Below, one piece after another: positions 41,700 to 43,189 of a stretch of 64,000 nt of DNA. Within the stretch, counting starts at the first letter, position 1. Each line of letters opens with the position of its first letter. Where the stretch lies: the sequence record PQ352352.2; one strand, 5' to 3'. A program made the position numbers and the translations under genes. Under the pieces are notes generated by a model. It had not been told where the DNA came from. It saw only the letters and a program-made list of their open reading frames with translations, and searched no databases. This DNA is from Escherichia phage vB_EcoM_PTE-Eco15.

Positions 41700-41902
41700 A
41701 TATAATTAATAAGATTTTTGGAATTCAGTACATTAAGGTCACATATAAAGTAACAGATAAAAATCCATATACTGATGAACGTGAAGAACCACGAGTTGAG
41801 TCTATTATATTAGAAAAGGACCCTAACTGGCCAGTTGAATTTCGTCTTCCTTGCTATGGTCATTGGGCTGATGTTGAAATTATAAGCATTGAAAATGTCT
41901 GA
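41696..41902 (+). CDS. hypothetical protein (30.x cluster)
   Basis: 68-aa ORF, ATGA overlap. Confidence 0.5.
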   Translation: MNIINKIFGIQYIKVTYKVTDKNPYTDEREEPRVESIILEKDPNWPVEFRLPCYGHWADVEIISIENV

Positions 41903-42353
41903 GTTAGAGATTAGAAGCAATTTTAGGTGGCCATCATGTGCATTAAGTAATTTCGCCCAATGGCCTTTCGTTATGGATGGTATTCAATTTGGAGGTCTTG
42001 AAGGATTCCTCCAAGGATGCAAGGTGAAAAACGTTGAACAACAAAAACGTATATTTGGGTTGTCTGGATTGGCTGCGCAGCAAGCTGGAAGGTCTTATGC
42101 AAGAGCTCAGGACCGTGGGACTCTCTTCTGGTTAGGAGTTCCATTTTCAAGATACTCCGAAGCGTGGAAAGAATTATACACAAATGCATATTTTGAAGCA
42201 GCGATCCAAAACAAGGGCTTTCGTGATGCATTACAAGCCTCGAAAGGAAAAGTTTTGAAGCACAGCATGGCTAGTGGTCTAACAAAAGATGATACAATAC
42301 TAACCGAAGCTGAATTTATTGATGTGTTAAACCTATTAAGAGACTCTCTATGA
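41889..42353 (+). CDS. NADAR / YbiA (DUF1768) family protein, 30.3-like position
   Basis: 154 aa; LSNFAQWPFVMDG closely resembles the E. coli YbiA N-terminal FSNFAAWPIKVDG signature as I remember it. Confidence 0.6.
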   Translation: MKMSELEIRSNFRWPSCALSNFAQWPFVMDGIQFGGLEGFLQGCKVKNVEQQKRIFGLSGLAAQQAGRSYARAQDRGTLFWLGVPFSRYSEAWKELYTNAYFEAAIQNKGFRDALQASKGKVLKHSMASGLTKDDTILTEAEFIDVLNLLRDSL

Positions 42354-43189
42354 AGCCTACTATTTTAACTGATATTGATGGAGTATGTTTAAGCTGGCAA
42401 TCAGGCCTTCCTTATTTTGCTCAGAAATATAATCTTCCGTTGGAACATATTTTAAAAATGATCCAAGATGAAAAATTTATTTCTCCTGGTAAACTTTTTA
42501 ATTGTGATGAAGAACTTGGTGTCAAGTTAATTGAAAAATATAATCGTTCAGATTTTATTCGTTACTTGTCTCCATATAAAGATGCTCTGTGTGTAATTAA
42601 CAAATTAAAAGAAGATTATAATTTTGTAGCTGTTACAGCGCTGGGTGATTCTATTGACGCTCTGCTGAATCGTCAATTTAATTTGAATGCTCTTTTTCCT
42701 GGTGCCTTCTCAGAAGTACTGATGTGTGGTCATGATTCTTCAAAAGAAGAGTTGTTCAAAAAGGCAAAAGAGAAATATAACGTAATTTGTTATATTGACG
42801 ATCTCGCTCACCACTGCGATCACGCGAGTGAAATATTAAGTGTTCCTGTTTATTGGATGGCTCGAGGGGAACGTGACAGTATTCCAAAAACTGCTCAGCG
42901 AGTTTATACATGGAACGATGTAGAGAATAAGCTTTTTTCACCAAAGGAAAATAAAGAAAGTTTTGATAGTGAAAAAGCTATAAAAGATGTAATTGAAAAG
43001 ATGATTAAAAACGATTCTTTTCGTTGGAACACTACCTGGAGAACTCCTGGATTTAATCCTTATAATCATCTATATCATCCATATCAGACACATCCGTTTC
43101 AGACATGGAACTATATTAAACCCGTCGGTATAGAGTATTTGTATAATAGACCTACTTGTGGTGATAATATTTTCCAAGGAGCATTCTAA
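42350..43189 (+). CDS. HAD-superfamily phosphatase-like protein, 30.2-like position
   Basis: 279 aa; N-terminal ILTDIDGV (HAD motif I DxDG); ATGA overlap with upstream ORF. Confidence 0.6.
   Translation: MKPTILTDIDGVCLSWQSGLPYFAQKYNLPLEHILKMIQDEKFISPGKLFNCDEELGVKLIEKYNRSDFIRYLSPYKDALCVINKLKEDYNFVAVTALGDSIDALLNRQFNLNALFPGAFSEVLMCGHDSSKEELFKKAKEKYNVICYIDDLAHHCDHASEILSVPVYWMARGERDSIPKTAQRVYTWNDVENKLFSPKENKESFDSEKAIKDVIEKMIKNDSFRWNTTWRTPGFNPYNHLYHPYQTHPFQTWNYIKPVGIEYLYNRPTCGDNIFQGAF

Follow-up and report, generated by a model that had tools for sequence, protein, structure and literature searches.

We assign the gene at positions 41895-42353 of the window (the whole 64,000 nt stretch of phage DNA that was analyzed) to the anti-DarTG1 factor AdfN, and the gene that follows it, 30.2, to a HAD phosphomonoesterase not needed for the anti-DarTG1 function of AdfN, a reading to which we give a probability of about 0.9. 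Others have shown for the T4 protein, which is 98% identical, that AdfN has the enzymatic activity, that it is both necessary and sufficient against DarTG1 and that 30.2 is dispensable, and these findings would extend to the window by analogy; our own analysis contributes the orthology, fold, conserved residues and gene context. The genes and junctions concerned are:

41696-41902: gene 30.4, 68 aa, overlapping the start of adfN
41889-41894, + strand: TTG and one codon upstream of the true adfN start, as placed by the T4 annotation and homologue starts
41895-42353, + strand: adfN (gene 30.3), 152 aa, predicted NADAR-superfamily DNA ADP-ribosylglycohydrolase and anti-DarTG1 factor
41895-41902, + strand: 8-nt overlap ATGTCTGA between the end of 30.4 and the start of adfN (junction sequences)
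42350-42353, + strand: ATGA, where the adfN stop overlaps the 30.2 start (junction sequences)
42350-43189, + strand: gene 30.2, 279 aa, HAD-superfamily, NT5C-like predicted phosphatase
45153-47204: alt, downstream of 30.3 and 30.2

The source of the window is a T4-like phage; the gene order is that of T4 (rIII, 30.9 ... 30.1, 30 (DNA ligase), alt.1, alt), and a 2-kb stretch around 30.3 and 30.2 is 98.8% identical to several Tequatrovirus genomes. Since homologues were found in 1510 phage records for 30.3 and 1452 for 30.2, both are real genes and not chance ORFs. We also noted that 30.3´, a 75 aa out-of-frame ORF annotated inside T4 30.3, is split here by a stop codon into pieces of 33 aa and 24 aa (42034-42258), which argues against 30.3´ as a conserved gene. 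Terminator-like GC hairpins with T-runs on the + strand at 40303-40324 and 45101-45120 bracket the genes from 30.8 to alt.1, as would fit a single, densely packed block of transcription. Such hairpins were not significantly more numerous than in shuffled sequence, and a sigma-70 promoter scan returned 21 sites versus 20.7 in shuffled sequence; transcription units therefore were not defined from the promoter scan.

The sequence-only reading had described the first gene as a 154 aa ORF with a YbiA-like signature. The signature, LSNFAQWPFVMDG, is present, but the length has to be revised. The 154 aa version is the longest possible ORF (41889-42353, + strand), and for this reason begins at the TTG at 41889. 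The T4 annotation, the homologue N-termini and the published residue numbering agree in placing the true start at the ATG at 41895: 30.3 is annotated in T4 as a 152 aa protein with an 8-nt overlap with 30.4, its homologues start MSELEIRS, and the published E36/K43 numbering fits this ATG alone. The nucleotides at 41889-41894 thus probably are not translated as part of AdfN. No Shine-Dalgarno-like sequence was seen ahead of the adfN ATG in the junction sequences, and this, together with the 8-nt overlap and the partial depletion of 30.4 on DarTG1 described below, suggests that adfN translation probably is coupled to that of 30.4.

The function of AdfN is already known, having been worked out in 2023-2025 for the T4 protein. 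The target of DarT1 in ssDNA is the amino group of guanine, and NADARs reverse the modification (Schuller et al., 2023; PMC11543638). Gene 30.3 was renamed anti-DarT factor NADAR (adfN) in a study in which T4 and T2 failed to plaque on DarTG1 hosts upon adfN deletion, adfN alone complemented the deletion in trans, the E36A and K43A substitutions impaired T4 AdfN, and purified AdfN stripped ADP-ribose from DarT1-modified DNA (Johannesman et al., Nat Commun 2025; PMC11825919). Earlier in vitro work had come to a matching biochemical conclusion for gp30.3 (PMC11125620). The construct is given in the methods of that study as ‘residues 1-208’ though the protein has 152 aa, probably a typo or a count that includes tag residues. 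In a T4 transposon screen on DarTG1, adfN insertions were lost (log2FC -7.25, padj 0; 10.1101/2025.11.20.689424). RB69, whose own AdfN has a frameshift and is 15 residues shorter, is sensitive to DarTG1 and is rescued by adfN expression (PMC11825919); the sensitivity is due to the loss of the AdfN C-terminal helix through the frameshift. The experiments that had been proposed for the window protein thus are already done and published for T4 AdfN (PMC11825919). T4 AdfN left uninfected cells unprotected from DarT1 and gave only weak rescue of phages other than T-even phages (PMC11825919; PMC11125620), so a mechanism in which the enzyme alone suffices is incomplete, and a further T-even factor has been reported to be necessary for full AdfN activity (PMC11825919).

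Given these data for T4, the case for the window depends on how closely its protein corresponds to T4 AdfN. The two align without gaps over 152 of 152 residues with 149 identities (98%), differing at three positions, K51R, E89P and M125I (window to T4). They are orthologues and share length, genomic position and the following features:

42000-42023, + strand: catalytic segment E36-G-F-L-Q-G-C-K43, with E36 at 42000-42002 and K43 at 42021-42023
42261-42263, + strand: H123, in the last beta-strand of the model, marking the gp30.3 clade of NADARs
42306-42350, + strand: C-terminal helix, the last 15 residues, from the full-length T4 alignment (helix 140-153 in the model)

The E-x6-K arrangement, comprising the catalytic Glu and Lys of NADAR that contact ADP-ribose, is present as E36 and K43; E36 is invariant across 46 diverse family members, and K43 is the family consensus residue. 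H123 is invariant or near-invariant in two family alignments, and a His in the last strand, in place of Glu in YbiA and Asp in DarG1, defines the gp30.3 clade of NADARs (PMC11125620). The C-terminal helix is intact, with no frameshift of the RB69 type. We conclude with high confidence, by analogy with T4, that the window gene is a functional adfN allele. With this allele complete in length and every residue of known importance retained, we infer that it behaves as T4 AdfN does and that the phage is DarTG1-resistant.

AdfN of the window matches the Pfam family Phage_30_3 (PF08010) over profile positions 1-138 of 138 (E 1.9e-69; 232.2 bits versus a cut-off of 36), but not Pfam NADAR (PF08719) at E ≤ 1. 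Its placement in the NADAR superfamily therefore draws on the predicted structure, on published work and on bridging relatives. Of 51 longer relatives, nine match PF08719 (best E 1.2e-6), the one relative for which a score is shown having 21.2 bits, under the 35.1-bit cut-off, and YbiA was the sole significant PDB sequence match of the family profile built from 46 members (E 0.0014). Single-sequence PDB searches with AdfN and gp30.2 returned nothing useful, and neither protein had a relevant match in NCBIfam or PADLOC. While a word-indexed homologue search with 30.3 gave 22 close relatives, an exhaustive profile search gave 1451 family representatives and was needed to see the breadth of the family. 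The fold and profile tests are concordant, and AdfN belongs to the NADAR superfamily with a YbiA fold. Hence the profile placement in NADAR/DUF1768 expected from the sequence failed against the Pfam NADAR model itself and held at the superfamily level, through the structure and family-profile searches, and the inference of a NADAR/YbiA-like, anti-DarT protein is validated both by these tests and by the published work on the 98%-identical T4 AdfN (PMC11825919; PMC11125620).

Within the superfamily, AdfN is distinct from the DarT1-associated NADAR antitoxins (DarG1) of the BC4488 family, such as Geobacter lovleyi NADAR (8bat) and E. coli C7 NADAR (PMC11543638), which have an N-terminal extension absent in AdfN and Asp, rather than His, in the last strand. 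Unlike these antitoxins, AdfN is an orphan with no adjoining toxin gene, and it cannot stand in for DarG1 in uninfected cells. E. coli YbiA (2b3w), which in contrast to AdfN has a housekeeping role in riboflavin metabolism, and Phytophthora NADAR (8bau) are about 20% identical to AdfN.

In the mechanism we favor, AdfN, produced early in infection, would be a stand-alone glycohydrolase of the NADAR fold. DarT1 released in a DarTG1 host would add ADP-ribose to the guanine N2 amino group in single-stranded phage DNA and block replication, and AdfN would cut the N-glycosidic bond by means of E36, K43 and H123, freeing ADP-ribose and allowing replication to resume. Gene 30.2 would be part of the same compact run of early genes, from 30.6 to alt.1, without being needed by AdfN against DarTG1.

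The features of gp30.2 that bear on its assignment are:

42371-42385, + strand: HAD motif I, D8-I-D10-G-V12, predicted nucleophile Asp and general acid/base Asp
42635-42637, + strand: HAD motif II, T96, near-invariant, the one exception being Ser
42743-42745, + strand: HAD motif III, K132, invariant
42797-42802, + strand: HAD motif IV, D150-D151, predicted Mg2+ ligands, invariant
43127-43156, + strand: G-I-E-Y-L-Y-N-R-P-T, residues 260-269, in the disordered C-terminal tail (pLDDT <50)

The 30.2 ORF (42350-43189) opens MKPTILTDIDGV and encodes a protein identical to T4 gp30.2 at 272 of 279 residues. Both the ATGA overlap and the ILTDIDGV motif at the opening of this ORF, from which a HAD-family protein had been proposed, are present as described. 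gp30.2 falls in PHROG 420, for which no function is annotated. No model in Pfam, NCBIfam or PADLOC matches it, nor does any curated HAD model at E ≤ 1; the weak matches were to TPK/thi_PPkinase, at chance level, and to PHROG 415 (polynucleotide kinase; E 0.0036). Across 32 gp30.2 homologues with identities down to 34%, D8, D10, G11, K132, D150 and D151 are invariant and T96 is near-invariant. In the AF2 model, pLDDT exceeds 90 across residues 1-~200, and the C-terminal tail is disordered and variable. The confident part is a Rossmannoid HAD core with a strand at residues 4-7, a helical cap inserted behind it (helices at 16-86) and a second strand at 91-96. Foldseek with this model retrieved 103 HAD structures at E ≤ 1e-3 with a probability of 1.00. 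The motifs, model and structure matches together agree with the proposed family, and assignment of gp30.2 to the HAD-fold phosphatase class, though predicted, is well supported.

The comparison may also point to a subfamily. Among the structures, 5´(3´)-deoxyribonucleotidases gave the highest target-normalised TM-scores (0.63-0.71) and the smallest rmsd, with dehalogenases equal in E-value, and the sole PDB sequence match of the gp30.2 family profile was mouse cytosolic 5´(3´)-deoxyribonucleotidase (2jao), at a marginal E of 0.039. With this NT5C family (cdN/mdN 2jao, 2i7d and 1q92; bacterial 3bwv) gp30.2 shares the HAD core, the helical C1 cap, and a motif I that is followed by (W/F)-(Q/E)-S-G-L. 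In contrast, identity is 14-20%, Pfam NT5C (PF06941) does not match gp30.2, and gp30.2 has an extra ~80-residue, largely disordered tail. We infer that gp30.2 is NT5C-like and an active nucleotide-type phosphatase. On this reading it would be a HAD phosphomonoesterase that has a C1-type helical cap, depends on Mg2+ and uses an Asp nucleophile; it would stand closest to 5´(3´)-deoxyribonucleotidases, and its substrate most likely would be a small, nucleotide-like molecule. A complete HAD/NT5C-like predicted enzyme is carried in about 1,450 phage genomes. Gene 30.2 is non-essential in published T4 transposon data, insertions being present at 72 of 72 sites, and in minimal medium they are neutral.

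AdfN and gp30.2, encoded side by side, had been proposed to form a two-enzyme ADP-ribose processing or anti-defence unit. One could picture the HAD phosphatase acting on the ADP-ribose, or on a phosphorylated derivative, that AdfN sets free, or equally suppose that gp30.2 is the T-even factor for AdfN. The second version would fit the reported need of AdfN for such a factor (PMC11825919), but we consider both unlikely. In the T4 transposon screen on DarTG1, 30.2 was unaffected (log2FC -0.12, p 0.61, 71 sites) compared to -7.25 for 30.3 (10.1101/2025.11.20.689424), and, as noted above, adfN by itself complements the deletion in trans. The ATGA overlap, with only a weak Shine-Dalgarno-like sequence for 30.2, might be taken as the mark of a translationally coupled unit; it carries no special weight, since the genes overlap by 1-8 nt at each of seven junctions in a row between 30.6 and alt.1, and overlapping junctions are generic to the block. 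Similarly, nearly all cultured T4-like phages have both 30.3 and 30.2, whose host distributions match and whose numbers of records are similar, and the co-occurrence of the two there reflects shared ancestry because of this near-universality. Among 80 diverse viral contigs with AdfN-like genes at 37-47% identity, a 30.2 homologue was located ≤5 kb away in 15. Other genes often intervene between the two in these 15 loci, and in 14 of them the 30.2 homologue is immediately or shortly upstream of the DNA ligase gene (10 with the two genes abutting, 4 with up to ~1.5 kb between them).

A different type of association was found in bacteria, where three of the best 150 AdfN family representatives have an AdfN-like domain fused to an NT5C-type HAD domain, one of them representing a cluster of 49 members. 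The fused HAD domain opens VDMDNVLVDFQSGL, resembling TDIDGVCLSWQSGL of gp30.2, and the extended motif I D-x-D-x-V-x-x-x-[FW]-Q-S-G-L is common to both. With an HMMER profile of gp30.2 the fused NT5C domains went undetected, so the fusions are not direct gp30.2 homologues at this sensitivity; the link to gp30.2 is made by hhalign (E 1.9e-4, probability 48%) and the shared motifs only. One fusion, in the metagenomic contig ERR9710099_15244 (L082:798-8841), is encoded in a cluster together with ADP_ribosyl_GH, a 344 aa NADAR, a short Phage_30_3 fragment, RtcB, and PTP-NADK-like and LMW phosphatase genes, which looks like an ADP-ribose or RNA-repair processing neighborhood. While this context, with its ADP-ribosylglycohydrolase, second NADAR, RtcB and two more genes of phosphatase type, would favor joint action of the two activities, the other two fusion contexts were unremarkable and uninformative. 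The fusions hint at a general NADAR-phosphatase association and are not evidence that gp30.2 aids AdfN in T4. AdfN and gp30.2 thus mostly do not behave as a module against DarT, and for DarTG1 the two-enzyme proposal is already largely refuted.

Another possibility is that the T-even factor of AdfN is encoded elsewhere in this block, with 30.4 as the flagged gene, and that gp30.2 separately processes an ADP-ribose-derived or nucleotide product in another pathway or defence. Together with the 30.4 depletion, the NADAR-NT5C fusions provide small leads on the AdfN cofactor, and it is their recurrence in bacteria that suggests such a product as the gp30.2 substrate; we regard this combined proposal as doubtful, to about the same degree as the two-enzyme unit. 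Besides 30.3, only 30.4 was significantly depleted on DarTG1 among the 30.x/alt neighborhood genes read (log2FC -1.79, padj 0.014), with 30.6, 30.7, 30.8, 30.2 and 30.1 not significantly depleted (10.1101/2025.11.20.689424), and 30.4 was neutral in M9 in published T4 transposon data. The simplest reading of the 30.4 depletion is translational coupling of adfN to 30.4, with potentiation of AdfN by gp30.4 as the alternative. Homologues of 30.4 were found in 719 phage records, mostly of T-even-type phages of Escherichia, Shigella and Yersinia, and the lower-identity matches include records of Mosigvirus, the genus of RB69.

The ADP-ribosyltransferase gene alt, cited in favor of the proposed unit by the sequence-only reading, is present downstream, but the functional link found no support. 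Alt modifies proteins rather than guanine. With this difference in acceptor class and no DarTG1 phenotype of alt insertions (log2FC -0.01; 10.1101/2025.11.20.689424), alt was rejected as a functional partner.

A further reading, in which gp30.2 has the HAD fold but no catalysis and serves as a scaffold or binding protein that docks through its disordered tail, appears slightly less probable still. A dead scaffold would be in line with 30.2 having no phenotype under the published T4 conditions (DarTG1, minimal medium, essentiality), with gp30.2 being matched by no curated HAD model, and with the conserved short motif near the C-terminus, where G-[IVL]-E-Y-x3-4-P-T is found 6-10 residues from the end in 15 of 57 long homologues and possibly constitutes a docking peptide. 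Against this, the tail is missing entirely in about 40% of gp30.2 homologues, and the four catalytic motifs show little or no variation down to 34% identity, the pattern expected of an active enzyme. A sliding-clamp-binding peptide also was considered for the tail motif and dropped.

That gp30.3 is instead a housekeeping enzyme of the YbiA type that hydrolyses reactive intermediates of the riboflavin pathway, or that it scavenges soluble immune signals derived from ADP-ribose, is very improbable, given that the gp30.3 clade has His where YbiA has the catalytic Glu, that genetics and biochemistry both show directly that it acts on DarT1-modified DNA, and that 30.3 insertions are without phenotype in minimal medium (log2FC +0.12; published T4 transposon data), though AdfN may have a secondary activity on soluble substrates.

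Finally, two observations were made on the wider AdfN family. Extensions of at least 80 residues are present on 51 of the best 150 family representatives, about a third, and AdfN-like domains were seen fused to GDSL lipase, BspA-type leucine-rich repeat, ASCH, DUF6939 and membrane-protein domains (P0153, P0194, P0230, P0233 and others). In addition, the record of Pseudomonas phage vB_PSGBLB0006 (PV654520.1, 142 kb) contains an AdfN that is 96.8% identical, as is typical for E. coli Tequatroviruses, and its host label or assembly therefore may be wrong.
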